A stretch of DNA of 64,000 nucleotides, taken from an uncultured Alphaproteobacteria bacterium. GTDB taxonomy: Bacteria > Pseudomonadota > Alphaproteobacteria > RF32 > CAG-239. The notes beneath the pieces were generated by a model. The model was given only the letters and a program-made list of their open reading frames with translations. It made no database searches and was not told where the DNA came from. This document shows, in pieces, positions 53,742-59,319 of this stretch. The DNA lies in assembly GCA_944391345.1 (NCBI GenBank), contig CALXTE010000007.1, positions 2,765 to 66,764 of the forward strand. The letters run 5' to 3'. The position numbers and the translations under genes are program-made. Each line of letters opens with the position of its first letter. The first letter of the stretch is position 1.

Positions 53742-54902
53742 ATGACTACAAAACCTGCAAAACCGATTATGCTTTTTGATTGCAAAACATCTCAAAAAGT
53801 TTTCGGCAGAGAAAACCTTATGAAAGCCTTTGAAAAAATTTTGGATCACGGCGGCTATTGCCAAGGACCGGAAACCAAAGAACTTGATGAAAAATTGGCA
53901 GCTTATTGCGGCGCCAAATATTGCTCGACCTGCGGTTCCGGCACAGATGCCTTAACTTTGGCCTTAATGGCTTGGGGCGTAAAACCCGGAGATGCCGTAT
54001 TTGTATCTTCTTTCACCTTTGTTGCCTCAGCCGAAGCACCGGTTTTGCTCGGTGCCACCCCGATATTCGTTGACTCTGATCCGAATACCTACAATATGGA
54101 TCCGGAAGATTTGCAACGCGCAATTAATGAAGTCAAAAAAGAAGGCAAGCTTAACTTAAAAGCCGTTGTAGCTGTTGATATTTTCGGTTCTCCTTGCGAC
54201 TATGACAAGATTATCAAAATCGCTCATGACAACGGCATGAAGGTTTTGGCCGATTCTTGCCAGGCATTTGGCTCTGTTTACAAAGGCAAACACGCCGGAA
54301 ACATTGCCGACATGACCGCCACATCTTTCTACCCGACCAAACCGCTCGGCGGCTATGGCGACGGTGGCGCAACTTTCTCTAATACCAATGAAGAGAACGA
54401 ACTGGTAAAATCTTGCCGCGTTCACGGCATGAGCCCCGAAGACCACTACGACAATGTTCGCTTGGGCATGACCGGCCGTATGAACACCTTCCAAGCAGCC
54501 GTACTATTACAAAAATTAACAATTCTGGATCAAGAATTGAAAGATCGTTTCAGAGTAGCATCTCGCTATGACAACGAACTTGATTCTTACTTCGGCAAAC
54601 AAAAGATTTTGGATGGCTGCAAATCGGCTTATGCACTTTACACCATCACCTGCCCTGACAGAGATGAGTTAATGGCTTATCTGAAAGATAATGGCATTCC
54701 TTGCGGTGCATATTATCCACGTCCGGTAAACACTCAAACCGCTTATGCAAAGTGGAACACCCGCAGCGTTCCGGTTTGTGAAAAATTATCCAAGACCGCA
54801 TTGTCTATCCCGATGACTCCGTATTTGGATAACGAAGATCTTGACTACATCATCAAGACCATGAACGAGTTTGCCGCTCAGAAAAAAGCCAAAGCCGCAT
54901 AA
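53742..54902 (+). CDS. DegT/DnrJ/EryC1/StrS family PLP-dependent sugar aminotransferase
   Basis: 386 aa. SFYPTKPLGGYGDGGA lysine region and overall family pattern. Confidence 0.85.
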   Translation: MTTKPAKPIMLFDCKTSQKVFGRENLMKAFEKILDHGGYCQGPETKELDEKLAAYCGAKYCSTCGSGTDALTLALMAWGVKPGDAVFVSSFTFVASAEAPVLLGATPIFVDSDPNTYNMDPEDLQRAINEVKKEGKLNLKAVVAVDIFGSPCDYDKIIKIAHDNGMKVLADSCQAFGSVYKGKHAGNIADMTATSFYPTKPLGGYGDGGATFSNTNEENELVKSCRVHGMSPEDHYDNVRLGMTGRMNTFQAAVLLQKLTILDQELKDRFRVASRYDNELDSYFGKQKILDGCKSAYALYTITCPDRDELMAYLKDNGIPCGAYYPRPVNTQTAYAKWNTRSVPVCEKLSKTALSIPMTPYLDNEDLDYIIKTMNEFAAQKKAKAA

Positions 54903-54922
54903 AAAGCAGCTTGTAAAATATC

Positions 54923-54961
54923 AAATCCCTCTTTGAGAATTTTCAAAGAGGGATTTTTTTT
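54923..54961 (+). terminator. intrinsic terminator
   Basis: AAATCCCTCTTTGA-gaatt-TTCAAAGAGGGATTT followed by a T run. Confidence 0.75.
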
Positions 54962-54978
54962 GACCTTTATCGACAACG

Positions 54979-55029
54979 TTATCCCCAGAAAATTTTTGCA
55001 TTTATTCACAAAAACAAGGCTTTTCCACA
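54979..55029 (+). promoter_or_regulatory. three co-oriented DnaA-box-like 9-mers
   Basis: TTATCCCCA (54979), TTATTCACA (55002) and TTTTCCACA (55021). The last two fit TTWTNCACA exactly. Located just upstream of the first leader module. Confidence 0.3.
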
Positions 55030-55036
55030 GGCTGCG

Positions 55037-55459
55037 ATTTGATTAAAATATTAAAATATGCTAATATAATCTCTGCGACTACTGGACTATGACTTTAATT
55101 TTGTAATTTTTTCATAGAGGTGCAGTCAATGGATATGTATAATAAATTTCAGTCGCCGCTTGGTTATCAGACCGGTGAAGGTCAGATTGACAGCTATGGC
55201 GTCGATCACAGCGGCTTTTCTACCCGTGATGAGTTGGAATATCAATTTACAAGACAAGGTAAAAATTAGTTTCAGCCCCGAAAACACCCATCTAAGCAAC
55301 GCGACTTCTTGTCCCAATCAGAAAACAGCCAAGTGATGCCCGCGGGGGCTCCCCGCTCCTCAATATGGTACTAATTTCTGGGGCAATTCTGACAATAACT
55401 ATGGCTTTGGTTCTTCAAATATTCACGACAATATTGAGAATAGCGAGAACCAAACTGAA
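55037..55459 (+). repeat. leader module copy A (promoter + 46-codon ORF + gap + N/G/S-rich linker)
   Basis: 423 bp, 415/423 (98%) identical to 57503..57925. Contains TATAAT at 55065-55070 and AGAGG-N8-ATG at 55129. Confidence 0.95.
55129..55269 (+). CDS. 46-codon leader ORF (MDMYNKFQSPLGYQTGEGQIDSYGVDHSGFSTRDELEYQFTRQGKN), possibly the N-terminus of the toxin
   Basis: Good RBS (AGAGG) and ATG. Ends at TAG 55267-55269. Identical copy at 57595..57735. Too short for the ORF track. Confidence 0.45.
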   Translation: MDMYNKFQSPLGYQTGEGQIDSYGVDHSGFSTRDELEYQFTRQGKN

Positions 55460-55993
55460 CAGAGTTATGAGTTGGAAAACAGTAACACACCCCAATGGGG
55501 ACTGAACAACACAGCTTTAGTGCAAAATAATAATGCGTATCTTGATTTTAATGGGAAGGAATTACTTTGGCATCAAAATAATAAGGTAACTAATTCTTGG
55601 AAAGCGATGTCGGGGCAGCCTGATTATCAATGTAAAGAATATGACCGCGTAAAAAATAAAGGTCCATTACCAGAAGGAAAATGGTTGGTAAGACAATCTC
55701 AACATCAGAATTATGACCAAACTCAAACGATATGGGACAAATTAAAAAATAATCTTGGAAGAGGTGAATGGAGAGGTGGAAAAGCTTCTTGGGGAAACAA
55801 CCGCATTTGGTTGGAACCAGCGACTGGAACAGATAATAAAGGCCGCACAGGCCTCTCTATTCATGGTGGTAAAGAGTATGGTTCTGGTGGATGTATTGAT
55901 TTAACAGATAAGATGGATGATTTCACCGATAAATTTAAGAGATATGGACAAGATATGATTCTTAATGTAAAATATGATAAAGATTGTTGGTGA
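55337..55993 (+). CDS. Tlde1/DUF2778-like (L,D-transpeptidase-fold) toxin module A; frame open from 55337, no canonical start before TTG 55472
   Basis: AMSGQPDY...NKGPLPEGKW...RIWLEP...GLSIHGG..YGSGGCIDL matches the DUF2778/Tlde1 pattern (SG...GPIPxGxY...IHGG...S.GCI). The upstream N/G/S-rich linker is shared with the other modules. Confidence 0.6.
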   Translation, partial: CPRGLPAPQYGTNFWGNSDNNYGFGSSNIHDNIENSENQTEQSYELENSNTPQWGLNNTALVQNNNAYLDFNGKELLWHQNNKVTNSWKAMSGQPDYQCKEYDRVKNKGPLPEGKWLVRQSQHQNYDQTQTIWDKLKNNLGRGEWRGGKASWGNNRIWLEPATGTDNKGRTGLSIHGGKEYGSGGCIDLTDKMDDFTDKFKRYGQDMILNVKYDKDCW

Positions 55994-56056
55994 TTTTTAT
56001 TGTATTTTGGATAAATGCTCAATATACTAAAAGCAAATTTAACCGAAGGTGTAATT

Positions 56057-56377
56057 ATGAAAAGAATTAAGCTGATACCTTTTTATCTCCTATTAGCTTT
56101 AAACGGATTTATAATTTTTATATATACTATAACATATCCAAAAGAAATGAGCAGCGACCAAATGCCTTGGAACTCTGAGGCTTTAGGTTGGGCATATGAA
56201 AACAAAATTAATTATACCATTTTTACAATAATAGATATGCTGATAATAATTGCTCCTTCGGTTTATGCTTGGAAGAGCCATAAAACAAATCTGGTAAAAT
56301 CCTATATAGTACTATCCATTCCTGCTTTTGTTTATCTTATACGCTATATATATTTTACTAACTTTTTTAACATATAA
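56057..56377 (+). CDS. small three-TM membrane protein, putative cognate immunity A
   Basis: Start at MKRIKLIPFY (ATG 56057, GAAGG upstream). Immediately follows toxin A. Homologous to 57140..57496 (YP...SEA(L/M)..A motif, same TM topology). Confidence 0.55.
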   Translation: MKRIKLIPFYLLLALNGFIIFIYTITYPKEMSSDQMPWNSEALGWAYENKINYTIFTIIDMLIIIAPSVYAWKSHKTNLVKSYIVLSIPAFVYLIRYIYFTNFFNI

Positions 56378-56392
56378 ATATATCATAAAGTA

Positions 56393-56465
56393 CAAACTTT
56401 TGAGGTAATTCTGACAATAACTATGGCTTTGGTTCTTCAAATATTCACGACAATATTGAGAATAG
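56393..56465 (+). repeat. partial linker homology block B (recombination handle of the orphan cassette)
   Basis: 56404..56465 matches 55382..55443 at 61/62 positions and 57848..57909 at 62/62. The W codon TGG of copies A and C is TGA here (56401-56403). Confidence 0.9.
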
Positions 56466-57048
56466 AAATAATAATCCGTTTGAAAATACGGTGAATAGCT
56501 TTGGGCAGAACCAAACCGAACAGAGTTATGAGTTGGTGAATGAGAGGCAGAATCAAAACGCCTCCTCATATAATAATCCTAATTGTTATATGAGATTTGA
56601 CGGAAAAAATTTGAATTTATTTGCTAATAATCAAAAAGTAAATAGTCTTGATGCCATGTCAGGGCGACCAGATTACCAAGCAAAAAAATTTCAAAATGTT
56701 CCCAACAAAGGTCCTATTCCTGAAGGAACGTACTACGCTAACCAAAATCAACGCCAAAAAATAGGTGTTTTGGATGCAGCTATTGGTGCGGGAACAGGTC
56801 TTTTAGGCATAAATAGAGGGACATGGAAAGGTTCTTTACCTGCTTGGGGAATGCGGAGAATATGGTTAAAGCCAGATTCTGATACCAATACTTATGAGCG
56901 AGATGGTTTTACTATTCATGGTGGTTTTAGCAAAGGTTCTGCCGGTTGTATTGATATTCCATGGCAAACAGGAATATTGAGTGATTATATGGATAATTGT
57001 CAAGAATCTGTTCCTGTTTATGTCGGTTATCCTAAAGATAATTGGTAA
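56404..57048 (+). CDS. orphan (startless) Tlde1/DUF2778-like toxin cassette B
   Basis: The frame opens right after TGA 56401-56403, with no RBS or ATG. AMSGRPDY...NKGPIPEGTYY...RIWLKP...GFTIHGG..KGSAGCIDI. Roughly one third of residues identical to toxin A by eye. Confidence 0.55.
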   Translation, partial: GNSDNNYGFGSSNIHDNIENRNNNPFENTVNSFGQNQTEQSYELVNERQNQNASSYNNPNCYMRFDGKNLNLFANNQKVNSLDAMSGRPDYQAKKFQNVPNKGPIPEGTYYANQNQRQKIGVLDAAIGAGTGLLGINRGTWKGSLPAWGMRRIWLKPDSDTNTYERDGFTIHGGFSKGSAGCIDIPWQTGILSDYMDNCQESVPVYVGYPKDNW

Positions 57049-57139: not shown

Positions 57140-57496
57140 TTGATTGATAGAATCAAGTGCAGTATGGTTGAAACGTGTAGGCTACTTTGGCAATTTAAGT
57201 GGTATATCGCCATATATCCGTTAATTTTTTTATGTTTAATCCATGAATACTTTTATCCTCCAGCTAAAGATGATCCGATTTTCGGTTCCGAGGCTATGTC
57301 TTATGCTTGGAATTACGTAAATCAGGAGGTTTATATCGGAAGTCTAAAAAATGATTTAATCTTTTGGCTATGCTATTTTCTTTTAGGAACTAGCAATATG
57401 CGGAATCATCCGTTGTTGGCTAAATTTATTTTTTTATTGCCTTTGTTATGGGGAATTTTGAGGCTAACAAGTGAATTTATAAAATCTTTATTCTGA
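57140..57496 (+). CDS. small three-TM membrane protein, putative cognate immunity B
   Basis: Follows toxin B and is homologous to immunity A. Start uncertain: TTG 57140 or ATG 57164. Confidence 0.5.
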   Translation: MIDRIKCSMVETCRLLWQFKWYIAIYPLIFLCLIHEYFYPPAKDDPIFGSEAMSYAWNYVNQEVYIGSLKNDLIFWLCYFLLGTSNMRNHPLLAKFIFLLPLLWGILRLTSEFIKSLF

Positions 57497-57502
57497 ATAC
57501 GA

Positions 57503-57925
57503 ATTTGATTAAAACATTAAAATATGCTAATATAATCTCTGCGACTACTGGACTATGACTTTAATTTTGTAATTTTTTCATAGAGGTGCAGTCAATGGAT
57601 ATGTATAATAAATTTCAGTCGCCGCTTGGTTATCAGACCGGTGAAGGTCAGATTGACAGCTATGGCGTCGATCACAGCGGCTTTTCTACCCGTGATGAGT
57701 TGGAATATCAATTTACAAGACAAGGTAAAAATTAGTTTCAGCCCCGAAAACACCCATCTAAGCAACGCGACTTCTTGTCCCAATCAGAAAACAGCCAAGT
57801 GATGCCCTCGGGGGCTCCCCGCTCCTCAACAAGGCACTAACTTTTGGGGTAATTCTGACAATAACTATGGCTTTGGTTCTTCAAATATTCACGACAATAT
57901 TGAGAATAGCGAGAACCAAACTGAA
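57503..57925 (+). repeat. leader module copy C
   Basis: 98% identical to 55037..55459, including the promoter, the 46-codon ORF (57595..57735), TAG, gap, TGA and hairpin. Confidence 0.95.
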
Positions 57926-57964
57926 TATGTGGATATTGCACTCCTTTTGGTATTGCCAAAGTAG
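57803..57964 (+). pseudogene. linker fused to a 13-codon stub instead of a toxin domain (truncated third module)
   Basis: The toxin frame continues ...NSENQTE, then diverges to YVDIALLLVLPK and stops at 57962-57964. Confidence 0.5.
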
Positions 57965-58050: not shown

Positions 58051-58473
58051 ATGAAAACGTTCGCTTGGCATGTTTTAATTTTAGGTGGATTTTTCTTTAT
58101 TATCTCCTTGCTCTCTTTTTTTCCGGAAAATTCCATTTTAACTACCATAAACATAGCGGCATTTATTATTTTTGCCTTAATGTTTTTCATTTTATGCTTT
58201 AAGAAAAAATATAATTTCATCAGCAGATTTCAAAACAAATTTACTAAAACAAGTATTTATTTGGCCGCTCTCGGTATTGGTGAATATTTTAGTATTATAT
58301 TCATCACTATTCCCGGAACAATTTATGGATACAAAGTCGCTATGGCACAGTATAACGGAGAGGAAATACCTTTAGCACCAATAAGCTATTTAAATAACAT
58401 CTATTACATATATCTTATTATTTCATGCATTTCCCTTATCTGGGCAACCTATACAAGCTTTATAAAAAAATAG
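58051..58473 (+). CDS. small four-TM membrane protein (possible orphan immunity)
   Basis: AAGGAG RBS. 140 aa, four hydrophobic segments. Sits where an immunity gene would be expected after the third leader. Confidence 0.5.
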   Translation: MKTFAWHVLILGGFFFIISLLSFFPENSILTTINIAAFIIFALMFFILCFKKKYNFISRFQNKFTKTSIYLAALGIGEYFSIIFITIPGTIYGYKVAMAQYNGEEIPLAPISYLNNIYYIYLIISCISLIWATYTSFIKK

Positions 58474-58584
58474 ATTTTTATCATCATAAATATATGATAC
58501 CCAACATCCTAAACATCTTTATTGAATTTTGCGCCGCCAAATGCTCGGCCTTTCACAAGAAAAATTAGCCGCCGCGCTTTCATC

Positions 58585-59319
58585 TTAGCTTTTTTTGAAG
58601 AGTTTTTTCTTAGATTTTGATTTTACTTTTGCCTCAAGCTTTTCCGGTTCAACAATTCCGCAAGAGATAACAAACTTCAGCCCTTCTTCAACCGACATAT
58701 CTAATTCAATCACATCTTTCTTCGGCACAAAGATTAAAAAACCGGAGGTTGGATTTGGCGTTGTCGGCACAAACACATTGAGCATTTCATCTTGCAGTTT
58801 TTTCTTCACTTCACCTTTTGTTTCCGCTCCGAGAAAACCGATAACCCATAGCCCCTTGCGCGGATATTCAAGCAAAACACATTTTGAAAAAGCTCTGTCC
58901 TGATTAGAAAAAATCGTCTCAAAAACTTTTTTCAATAATGAATAGACACTGGACACAACCGGCAACCGCCGCACCATCCAATCGCCGAGATGCACAAAAA
59001 ACCGCCCGACAAATCCGGCCGCAAACATACCGACAACAATCAAAAACAGCACCAGCAAAATAATTCCGATCCCCGGAACCGTCATCGGAATATGATACCG
59101 CTCCATAATCTCGGGAGGAATCAACTTATGAACCGAGTTATCAATCCACAAAAAGATTTCATAAGCCATATAAAAAGTAATAGCTACCGGTGCCGTCACC
59201 AAAATTCCGGTAAAGAAATAGGCTCTTATTTTTTCACCCAGCTTCATAAAAACCGCGCGCTCACGTTCCAAACGAATACGTTTGATATTTTTAGCACGTT
59301 CCTTCACAACATCACTCAT
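58585..59319 (-). CDS. DUF502 family membrane protein
   Basis: VPGIGIILLVLFLIVVGMFAAG, RRLPVVSSVYSLLKKV and VFVPTTPNPTSGFLIFVP are typical of DUF502. The start may be the internal MKLGEK. Confidence 0.8.
   Translation of the reverse strand: MSDVVKERAKNIKRIRLERERAVFMKLGEKIRAYFFTGILVTAPVAITFYMAYEIFLWIDNSVHKLIPPEIMERYHIPMTVPGIGIILLVLFLIVVGMFAAGFVGRFFVHLGDWMVRRLPVVSSVYSLLKKVFETIFSNQDRAFSKCVLLEYPRKGLWVIGFLGAETKGEVKKKLQDEMLNVFVPTTPNPTSGFLIFVPKKDVIELDMSVEEGLKFVISCGIVEPEKLEAKVKSKSKKKLFKKS

Follow-up and report, generated by a model that had tools for sequence, protein, structure and literature searches.

The analyzed DNA is a stretch of 64,000 nucleotides (nt; hereafter the window) from an uncultured Alphaproteobacteria bacterium, and the system in question is a toxin locus within it, called locus A in the following. 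Downstream of an aminotransferase gene and a promoter-like site, locus A opens with a short leader open reading frame (ORF) that ends at a TAG. The frame of a Tlde1/YkuD-type toxin, bounded upstream by a TGA, follows in a different reading frame, and a presumed immunity gene completes the arrangement. Its features are listed here, + denoting the forward strand and MAG a metagenome-assembled genome.

53742-54899: aminotransferase, 386 aa, just upstream of toxin locus A
55037-55341, +: repeated 5' module (promoter-like site, leader and most of a foreign segment), 100% identical to 57503-57807 (copy C) by repeat search and alignment
55043-55070, +: sigma-70-like promoter match TTAAAA-16-TATAAT upstream of the leader, 10/12 in a consensus scan and a consensus match only
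55129 (ATG) to 55267-55269 (TAG), +: leader ORF in frame 1, 46 codons, translated product MDMYNKFQSPLGYQTGEGQIDSYGVDHSGFSTRDELEYQFTRQGKN
55263-55357, +: foreign segment of 95 nt, standing for positions 1747-1798 (52 nt) of the same-locus assembly L122 and unalignable with them
55267-55269, +: TAG ending the leader, within the foreign segment
55287-55319, +: block homologous to an intergenic repeat (ATCTAAGCATCGCG...CCCCAATC) of the Alphaproteobacteria MAG BRZ_ED__bin7
55334-55336, +: TGA closing the toxin frame (frame 2), overlapping the start of a repeat 22-mer (T+GATGCC...)
55335-55356, +: 22-nt repeat core GATGCCCGCGGGGGCTCCCCGC, holding a 6-bp GC hairpin and a run of five G (G5)
55358-55993, +: native coding sequence from CCT 55358, with the PQYGTNFWGNSDNNYGFGSSNIHDNIEN block and then the Tlde1/YkuD-type toxin A, stop TGA 55991-55993
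56015-56377, +: presumed immunity gene A, 120 aa, hydrophobic, from the ORF list and named for its position

Translation and the ORF list reproduced the layout described in a first-pass annotation of the window with regard to the leader, TAG, TGA, frames and hairpin. Toxin frame 2 is open from 55337 to the TGA at 55991-55993, the earliest in-frame ATG, GTG or TTG being TTG 55472. The hairpin GCGGGG-GCT-CCCCGC at 55342-55356 consists of a 6-bp stem and a 3-nt loop with a folding energy of -11.7 kcal/mol (z = -0.58, i.e., ordinary for its composition), and it includes the G5 run at 55344-55348. That deleting 55267-55336 (70 nt) would fuse leader and toxin frames, as had been pointed out, holds as a matter of arithmetic. 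Toxin A reaches 26.7 bits with the Pfam profile YkuD (cut-off 23.4) and 30.0 bits with Tlde1_dom (cut-off 30.1), and it carries the catalytic His...Cys motif SIHGG...GSGGCIDL; profile and motif alike point to a member of the Tlde1/YkuD L,D-transpeptidase-like family. The same immunity A gene lies 3' of the toxin in L002 and L122, and a Pfam search with it returned no match.

The decisive comparison came from other strains. An exact look-up of the upstream 386-aa aminotransferase yielded two same-locus assemblies, L121 and L122, in which identical aminotransferase, terminator, promoter and leader are followed by one single ORF of 273 aa, comprising ...EYQFARQDKENKLIQNYNNQGITKNYPQYGTNFWGNSDNNYGFG... 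and toxin A. Samples with the intact allele are ERZ28614228 (SAMEA6814543) and ERZ24773555. In pairwise alignment with L122, only 8 of 1521 positions differ across window 53742-55262, and one of 1109 across 55358-56466. Between these two flanks the window carries the 95 nt of foreign sequence, whereas the native 52 nt comprise the third base of the Lys45 codon and the codons for ENKLIQNYNNQGITKNY (17 residues). The resulting net gain of 43 nt sets leader and toxin frames off by +1. TAG, TGA and GC hairpin all reside inside the foreign 95 nt. Accordingly composed, the leader holds 45 codons of the native toxin N-terminal domain (93% identity to residues 1-45 of the intact homolog P0001), then the foreign AAT and the TAG, and the first seven codons after the TGA (55337-55357, TGC CCG CGG GGG CTC CCC GCT) are inserted repeat and not native sequence. 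Relative to the intact same-locus ortholog the toxin frame is disrupted, as in a pseudogene. By its sequence limits the lesion is a replacement and not a simple insertion. A MAFFT alignment of the gap with the intact linker had offered another solution, namely a diverged homologous linker with three insertions, which was ruled out by the same-locus allele together with the repeat homology described below.

Uninterrupted versions of the leader, for which the first-pass annotation had suggested searching, are common beyond this locus. A query consisting of the hypothetical fusion of leader, frame-2 reading of the gap and conserved block found 132 homologs, mostly in ENA and Logan assemblies and including two named Alphaproteobacteria MAG proteins; among the best 120 of these 132, to which the following counts refer, 91 are uninterrupted. 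In intact members the spacing from YGVDH to NNYGFG is fixed at 52-54 residues, and the family consensus reads MDxYxKYKSPLGYQTGxNxIDSYGVDHSGFSTRDELEYQxARQxRENQLxxNYNNQGITxNYPQYGTNFWGxxxNNYGFGSSNIxxNIEN. Of the residues replaced, at least 90% of 58 aligned intact members conserve E46, G57 and I58; conservation extends to P63 and Q64 immediately behind the stretch. The matches share residues 1-95 and diverge thereafter into C-termini of the Tlde1/YkuD type, of the SAA-like (serum-amyloid-A-like) type PF00277, or with unannotated domains, with a small ORF 3' of each toxin. Judged by this architecture, it is a polymorphic-toxin family with a constant N-terminal part of ~95 aa and a variable C-terminal toxin, the proteins being small (~120-270 aa). 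The N-terminal ~95-aa domain (55129-55262 plus 55358-55440 in the window; P0001-P0120) has no match in Pfam or NCBIfam. An AlphaFold2 (AF2) model of P0001 gives residues 11-90 a predicted local distance difference test (pLDDT) score of 83-94 and places a helix at 32-55 across the deletion point, the removed residues being the second half of this helix and the following loop; a Foldseek search of the PDB with the modeled domain found no match. It may represent an undescribed trafficking domain of small polymorphic toxins of uncultured gut Alphaproteobacteria.

About 13 of the 120 listed members are broken in other ways. Unrelated lesions frameshift or truncate P0052, P0068, P0082, P0085, P0086, P0100, P0109, P0117, P0119, P0120 and the locus L007 6670-7544; as deduced from the protein sequences, P0068 would carry a 7-nt duplication, P0119 a 1-nt insertion and L007 a frameshift further downstream. 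Toxin-gene inactivation looks common in this family, or else its repeats provoke assembly errors. The search could detect lesions of the N-terminal region only, thus a lesion hotspot cannot be claimed.

The source of the foreign segment could be traced to a family of intergenic hairpin repeats. To avoid circularity, an nhmmer profile was built from three repeat copies of the MAG BRZ_ED__bin7 (two in L017, one in L103) with the 22-mer left out. Its two best matches in the window are 55287-55319 and 57753-57785 (E = 6e-4), both at the correct offset from the 22-mer; correspondingly, the 45 nt upstream of the 22-mer in BRZ_ED__bin7 resemble the window gap. A genome-collection scan for the hairpin core defined the exact 22-mer as GATGCC[A/C/G]GCGGGGGCTCCCCGC and recovered it in four BRZ_ED__bin7 loci (L017, L055, L081, L103), and in BRZ_RF__bin97 (L067 = L004). 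The same scan gave dozens of loci in Ruminococcus/Oscillospiraceae MAGs, and its other matches were chance hits in GC-rich genomes. The TGATGCC that closes the toxin frame is likewise present in many non-coding repeat copies. Copies of BRZ_ED__bin7 are intergenic, situated after stop codons or between convergent genes, and the 22-mer copies in general lie mostly downstream of genes. The repeat is built of modules that are combined or omitted, i.e., the ATCTAAGCATCGCG block, the CCCCAATC block, the 22-mer and a second hairpin TCAAACGGCGCCCGTTTG, and the Ruminococcus copies form mosaic arrays of small hairpins in which modules were gained or lost. Palindromic units in mosaic arrangement make a REP/BIME-like mosaic intergenic repeat (repetitive extragenic palindrome/bacterial interspersed mosaic element) the most fitting label for this sequence. 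Terminal inverted repeats of the segment are absent, the only inverted pair near its ends being an 8-mer with its right arm in native coding sequence, and no target-site duplication was found, 52 nt having been exchanged for 95 nt; it thus lacks the hallmarks of a miniature inverted-repeat transposable element (MITE).

Other identities of the repeat were tried and rejected. ARAGORN (window) and Rfam (window and repeat-bearing loci) place no tRNA there, speaking against a tRNA-like fragment; the stem arms are reversed in order compared with type I-E CRISPR repeats; a small ORF (MPAGAPR...) lacks a Shine-Dalgarno sequence in most copies; and the hairpin is neither followed by a T run nor listed in the terminator scan. 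With Rfam, the whole window at gathering thresholds gave a tRNA only, 54900-55600 at E <= 10 gave no match at the site (selenocysteine insertion sequence, SECIS, included), fifteen repeat-bearing loci gave nothing, the tandem copies of L077 gave chance-level matches only, and L001, L121, L004, L007 and L003 gave tRNAs only. Joint Genome Institute (JGI) metagenome scans for the hairpin-toxin junction and for the repeat 5' block found nothing, the relevant contigs being in ENA and Logan, and a literature search on the hairpin sequence found no papers.

Several observations concern the 22-mer GATGCCNGCGGGGGCTCCCCGC itself (window 55335-55356 and 57801-57822). It occurs as multi-copy mosaic repeats in L010, L014, L029, L046, L077, L106, L123 and others, in tandem in L077 and L106, and at times in the loop of a larger hairpin. 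All exact matches stem from MAGs or a viral contig and none from isolate genomes. One IMG/VR contig holds one exact 22-mer and two partial matches; as this was the single contig in the viral scan, phage carriage is not general.

Taken as a whole, the toxin gene of locus A has very probably been inactivated recently, in an allele still segregating, by replacement of 52 coding nt with a 95-nt piece of an intergenic repeat, and is not subject to programmed recoding. Observed directly are the intact same-locus allele, the exact limits of the replacement, the family-wide conservation of replaced residues, the repeat homology and the identical modules at three loci. The normal product would be one 273-aa protein made of the N-terminal ~95 aa and the Tlde1/YkuD-type toxin. 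Repeat-derived sequence would have taken the place of 52 nt in the middle of the N-terminal domain with loss of ENKLIQNYNNQGITKNY, and the in-frame TAG, the frame offset and the TGA together leave a 46-codon stub and a toxin frame without a start codon. The allele would accordingly be a pseudogene or a silenced cassette from which the toxin is presumably not made. The repeat segment may have entered by illegitimate recombination or template switching, or else by transposition. Of the mechanisms considered in the first-pass annotation, a small intervening element is supported, with the segment deriving from a repeat; it replaced 52 nt and was not plainly inserted. The annotation had also stated that continuous homologs next to a simple disruptive insertion would mark a pseudogene; this is the situation encountered, except for the replacement.

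At the left edge of the lesion we observed that the first 8 nt of the foreign segment (AAATTAGT, 55263-55270) are the exact reverse complement of native ACTAATTT at 55370-55377, 99 nt downstream. Such a pair is expected by chance with an estimated ~20% in a stretch of this size, and it has a mismatch in copy C; it could hint at template switching.

The broken module is found at further loci. Copy C within the window carries it at 57503-57823, with the identity to copy A being longer than previously noted (55037-55341 and not 55050-55341). The locus L001, which is situated in a different genomic neighborhood and encodes a different toxin, has the same broken module from ~55086 on. Copies A, C and L001 share the variants 55236 G, 55249 A and 55259 G left of the junction, and the sequences on either side of the shared module diverge among them. 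The 100% identity, the three shared variants and the diverged surroundings indicate that the broken 5' module was added later, and identical modules at three loci imply that one lesion was copied among paralogous loci. It probably spread by gene conversion or homologous recombination across the shared leader and the conserved block; the proposal of a recent silencing spread by gene conversion is supported by the identical modules at A, C and L001. Directly 5' of the third toxin locus, at L001 9664-9737, lies a tRNA gene, placing this copy in a tRNA-adjacent island.

In a second species (L004, L005, L067) the 22-mer is joined directly to ...EYQF on its left, and the right junction is identical. 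This broken copy is out of frame in the opposite direction, and L004 holds an intact family member 2 kb upstream. For the shared right junction we considered both one old event moved by recombination and a site preference of the repeat. The G run is G5 in five of six independent copies and G4 in L003, where the shorter run brings the ATG of the element (55336) into frame and gives rise to a called 122-aa ORF, P0062.

The copied lesion also accounts for what had been taken as coding selection starting at the codon right after the TGA. The underlying alignment was confirmed: copies A and C differ at seven positions in 55342-55384 that fall in six codons of the toxin frame, five of them synonymous at the third position and one Tyr/Gln. 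The interpretation does not hold, with 55337-55357 being repeat and 55364-55384 reflecting older allelic divergence. The "synonymous" CCG/CCT change arose by mutation of the hairpin's first base and is coincidental; this base is T in the copy C hairpin (57808-57822), which abolishes the outer pair. Further downstream, copy A is of the QY type and matches the intact allele from 55358 on, and copy C and L001 carry the PQQGTNFWG (QQ) type. QY is found in the intact allele and QQ also in intact proteins, e.g., P0009, so the synonymous pattern at 55364-55384 predates the break and records the divergence of functional alleles.

Among the rival explanations is programmed recoding, of which a +1 shift with UGA readthrough or selenocysteine (Sec) and a gene-60-like hop had been placed first in the first-pass annotation. 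A fusion toxin would arise by such a shift, by TAG readthrough with a +1 slip on G5, or by ribosomes hopping from AAT-TAG to Asn codon 55373. In its favor are a stop directly after a possible take-off codon (AAT-TAG at 55264-55269, in-frame AAT at 55373-55375 in copy A), a G5 run on which a +1 tRNA-Gly slip would enter the toxin frame, a stable hairpin near by, and a module conserved at three loci. We nonetheless regard recoding as highly improbable. The intact allele of the same species is a continuous ORF that needs no recoding, as are the 91 plain ORFs among the 120 listed relatives, and every supposed signal resides in the foreign segment, which has counterparts among non-coding repeats. 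Recoding would call for two or more rare events, and its product would still be short of 17 conserved residues in a structured domain, which no recoding can restore. As for the hop, the intact allele has no such gap, and ribosomes bypassing it would likewise leave out the 17 native residues; copy C presents AAC as the landing codon, and a stem-loop was not noted where take-off would occur. Rfam gave no SECIS-like match, tRNA-Thr is the only tRNA of the window, and the L004-type allele could be rejoined only by shifting the other way. In the T4 gene 60 bypass and the prfB +1 frameshift, as in locus A, a possible take-off codon is followed by a stop, a stem-loop lies close by and a skip could join two frames. 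Their sites are conserved features of the gene; here, in contrast, an orthologous allele is intact and lacks the gap, whose sequence copies a non-coding repeat. A gene that is switchable or separately expressed, through G4/G5/G6 changes or a start at ATG 55336 or TTG 55472 yielding a leaderless or phase-variable toxin, appears very unlikely to us. The toxin A ORF is intact, G4 in L003 sets ATG 55336 in frame (122-aa ORF P0062), and G6 would fuse leader and toxin in L004. However, five G are short for efficient slippage, G5 is seen in five of six independent copies, neither ATG 55336 nor TTG 55472 is preceded by a Shine-Dalgarno sequence, and a leaderless protein would lack half or all of the N-terminal domain. 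Moreover, the only G4 copy (L003) has lost promoter, leader and immunity gene, a context in which an expressed toxin would be hard to tolerate.

That the broken loci are kept as silent cassettes, serving as a recombination reservoir for an intact locus elsewhere or retaining immunity genes for defence, with the break neutral or favored, is unlikely in our estimation and would anyhow refine the preferred explanation (the gene remains non-functional) without offering another mechanism. The orphan cassette B and three presumed immunity ORFs have been kept, in L004 the broken copy is preceded, at a distance of 2 kb, by an intact family member, and the broken allele segregates in several cohorts; yet no intact family copy was found in the window, and toxin C is already degenerate. 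An assembly or sequencing artefact, such as a chimeric join or a homopolymer error, comes to mind as the sources are seemingly all metagenome assemblies and the region is repeated, but it is scarcely conceivable: the identical 95-nt segment with the same junctions occurs twice in the window and in three independent assemblies from different projects (ERZ28614444 of sample SAMEA6814540, ERZ24773553, ERZ16268063), being identical in L001 and L002 and 98% identical in L003. The same leader, gap, TGA and hairpin in these three exclude the assembly error that the annotation had wanted checked. Quite unlikely, finally, is the idea that the 22-nt unit GATGCCNGCGGGGGCTCCCCGC, alone or with companion modules, acts as an unusually small mobile or copy-and-paste element that different phyla of gut communities share. 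Recent events of overwriting coding sequence at a preferred site would in that case be recorded in the toxin locus, the preference being deduced from the same right junction ...CCCCGCT|CCNCARTATGG in two species; in a weaker version, the G5 run would permit low-level frameshifting and some toxin would leak.

Inactivation by the repeat segment has to be weighed against several observations of its own. The toxin A frame downstream is fully open, as in a still-used gene, which is explained by recency (one substitution in 1.1 kb). The broken module recurs at three loci, and at least four assemblies of different cohorts contain it; the second species (L004, L005, L067) shows the 22-mer at the identical right junction. 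This recurrence implies that the lesion persists and spreads, and it might be tolerated or even advantageous. The length of the G run differs among copies, and G4 as in L003 would set ATG 55336 and the leader frame in the toxin frame. A donor copy of the 95-nt segment, or any other repeat copy, was not found in the window. Some product might still leak through the G run or internal starts.

Repeats residing in genes have been described before: Rickettsia palindromic elements (RPEs) of ~150 bp are integrated 44 times in genes of Rickettsia conorii (PMC10969869). Common to RPEs, to intragenic MITE- and REP-type repeats (ERIC, BOX, Correia) and to the window is a hairpin repeat of ~100 nt, normally intergenic, which here lies inside a coding gene of an alphaproteobacterium. 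RPEs are usually in frame and the host protein still works. The window segment, unlike them, brings in stop codons and a frameshift at the expense of 52 nt of conserved coding sequence. REP/BIME of E. coli and RIME of rhizobia share the GC-rich palindromic units that join other short modules in changing order, the location 3' of genes and the many copies per genome. REP families are normally species-specific, in contrast to the 22-nt unit, found unchanged in MAGs of Firmicutes and Alphaproteobacteria and in one viral contig. On the toxin side, the contact-dependent inhibition (CDI) system cdiA-CT/cdiI, Rhs and MafB likewise combine a constant N-terminus with variable toxins and presumed immunity genes, leaderless orphan cassettes at a recombination block and rearrangement between strains, and such polymorphic toxin loci are often degraded. 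Differing from those, the N-terminal domain described here has no match in Pfam, NCBIfam or PDB, and the proteins are small.

As a recoding candidate locus A has no importance, the gene being broken. It illustrates that a recently copied lesion, set beside allelic differences of greater age, can look like coding selection acting across a stop, and that a single same-locus allele from another strain settles such cases. Furthermore, it flags a small polymorphic-toxin family of uncultured gut Alphaproteobacteria with an N-terminal domain that matches no known family or fold, and in which alleles that have lost the toxin retain the presumed immunity genes and go on segregating in the population. 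It also draws attention to a hairpin repeat module shared with distant gut Firmicutes.

Downstream of locus A the window continues with further parts of the system and, in support of inactivation, with signs of decay in toxin C and in a regulator gene.

56404-57048, +: orphan toxin cassette B, starting at the shared GNSDNNYGFGSSNIHDNIEN block, without leader and with in-frame TAA and TGA just upstream
57140-57496, +: presumed immunity gene B, 118 aa, from the ORF list and by position only
57503-57823, +: copy C of the broken 5' module, with leader 57595-57735, foreign segment 57729-57823, TAG 57733-57735 and TGA 57800-57802
57824-57964, +: degenerate toxin C, ending at TAG 57962-57964
58051-58473, +: presumed immunity gene C, 140 aa, membrane-like

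Without a leader of its own, the orphan cassette B begins at the common GNSDNNYGFGSS block; its toxin, which scores 41.6 bits with the Pfam profile Tlde1_dom, is Tlde1/YkuD-like. Compared with L003 1288-1635 by pairwise alignment, toxin C lacks 1 nt after 57930 and 165 nt at 57960/57961; intact versions of it are P0005 and P0062. L003, in turn, keeps the toxin C ORF without window 58085-58469 (most of presumed immunity gene C) and represents a third structural variant of the locus, in which promoter, leader and most of immunity C are deleted. The small ORFs at 56015-56377, 57140-57496 and 58051-58473 each lie 3' of a toxin, an immunity role being suggested by this position only. A scan of the ten largest window ORFs revealed no secretion-system genes.

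At ~58490-58590 a remnant of an XRE/helix-turn-helix (HTH)-type regulator is preserved as the fragments aacatctttattgaatttt... and ...caagaaaaattagccgccgcgctt only. Elsewhere the XRE/HTH gene is intact beside toxin loci (L121 4119-4270; L001 11859-12035). A block located 5' of the HTH gene (aggcgtggg...gcgtttagcactg.gagagcggtgcgggactttgaac.gtcc...), which had no Rfam match at gathering thresholds, is intergenic and conserved between L001 11570-11800 and L121 3830-4060, and might be a structured RNA or a regulatory region.

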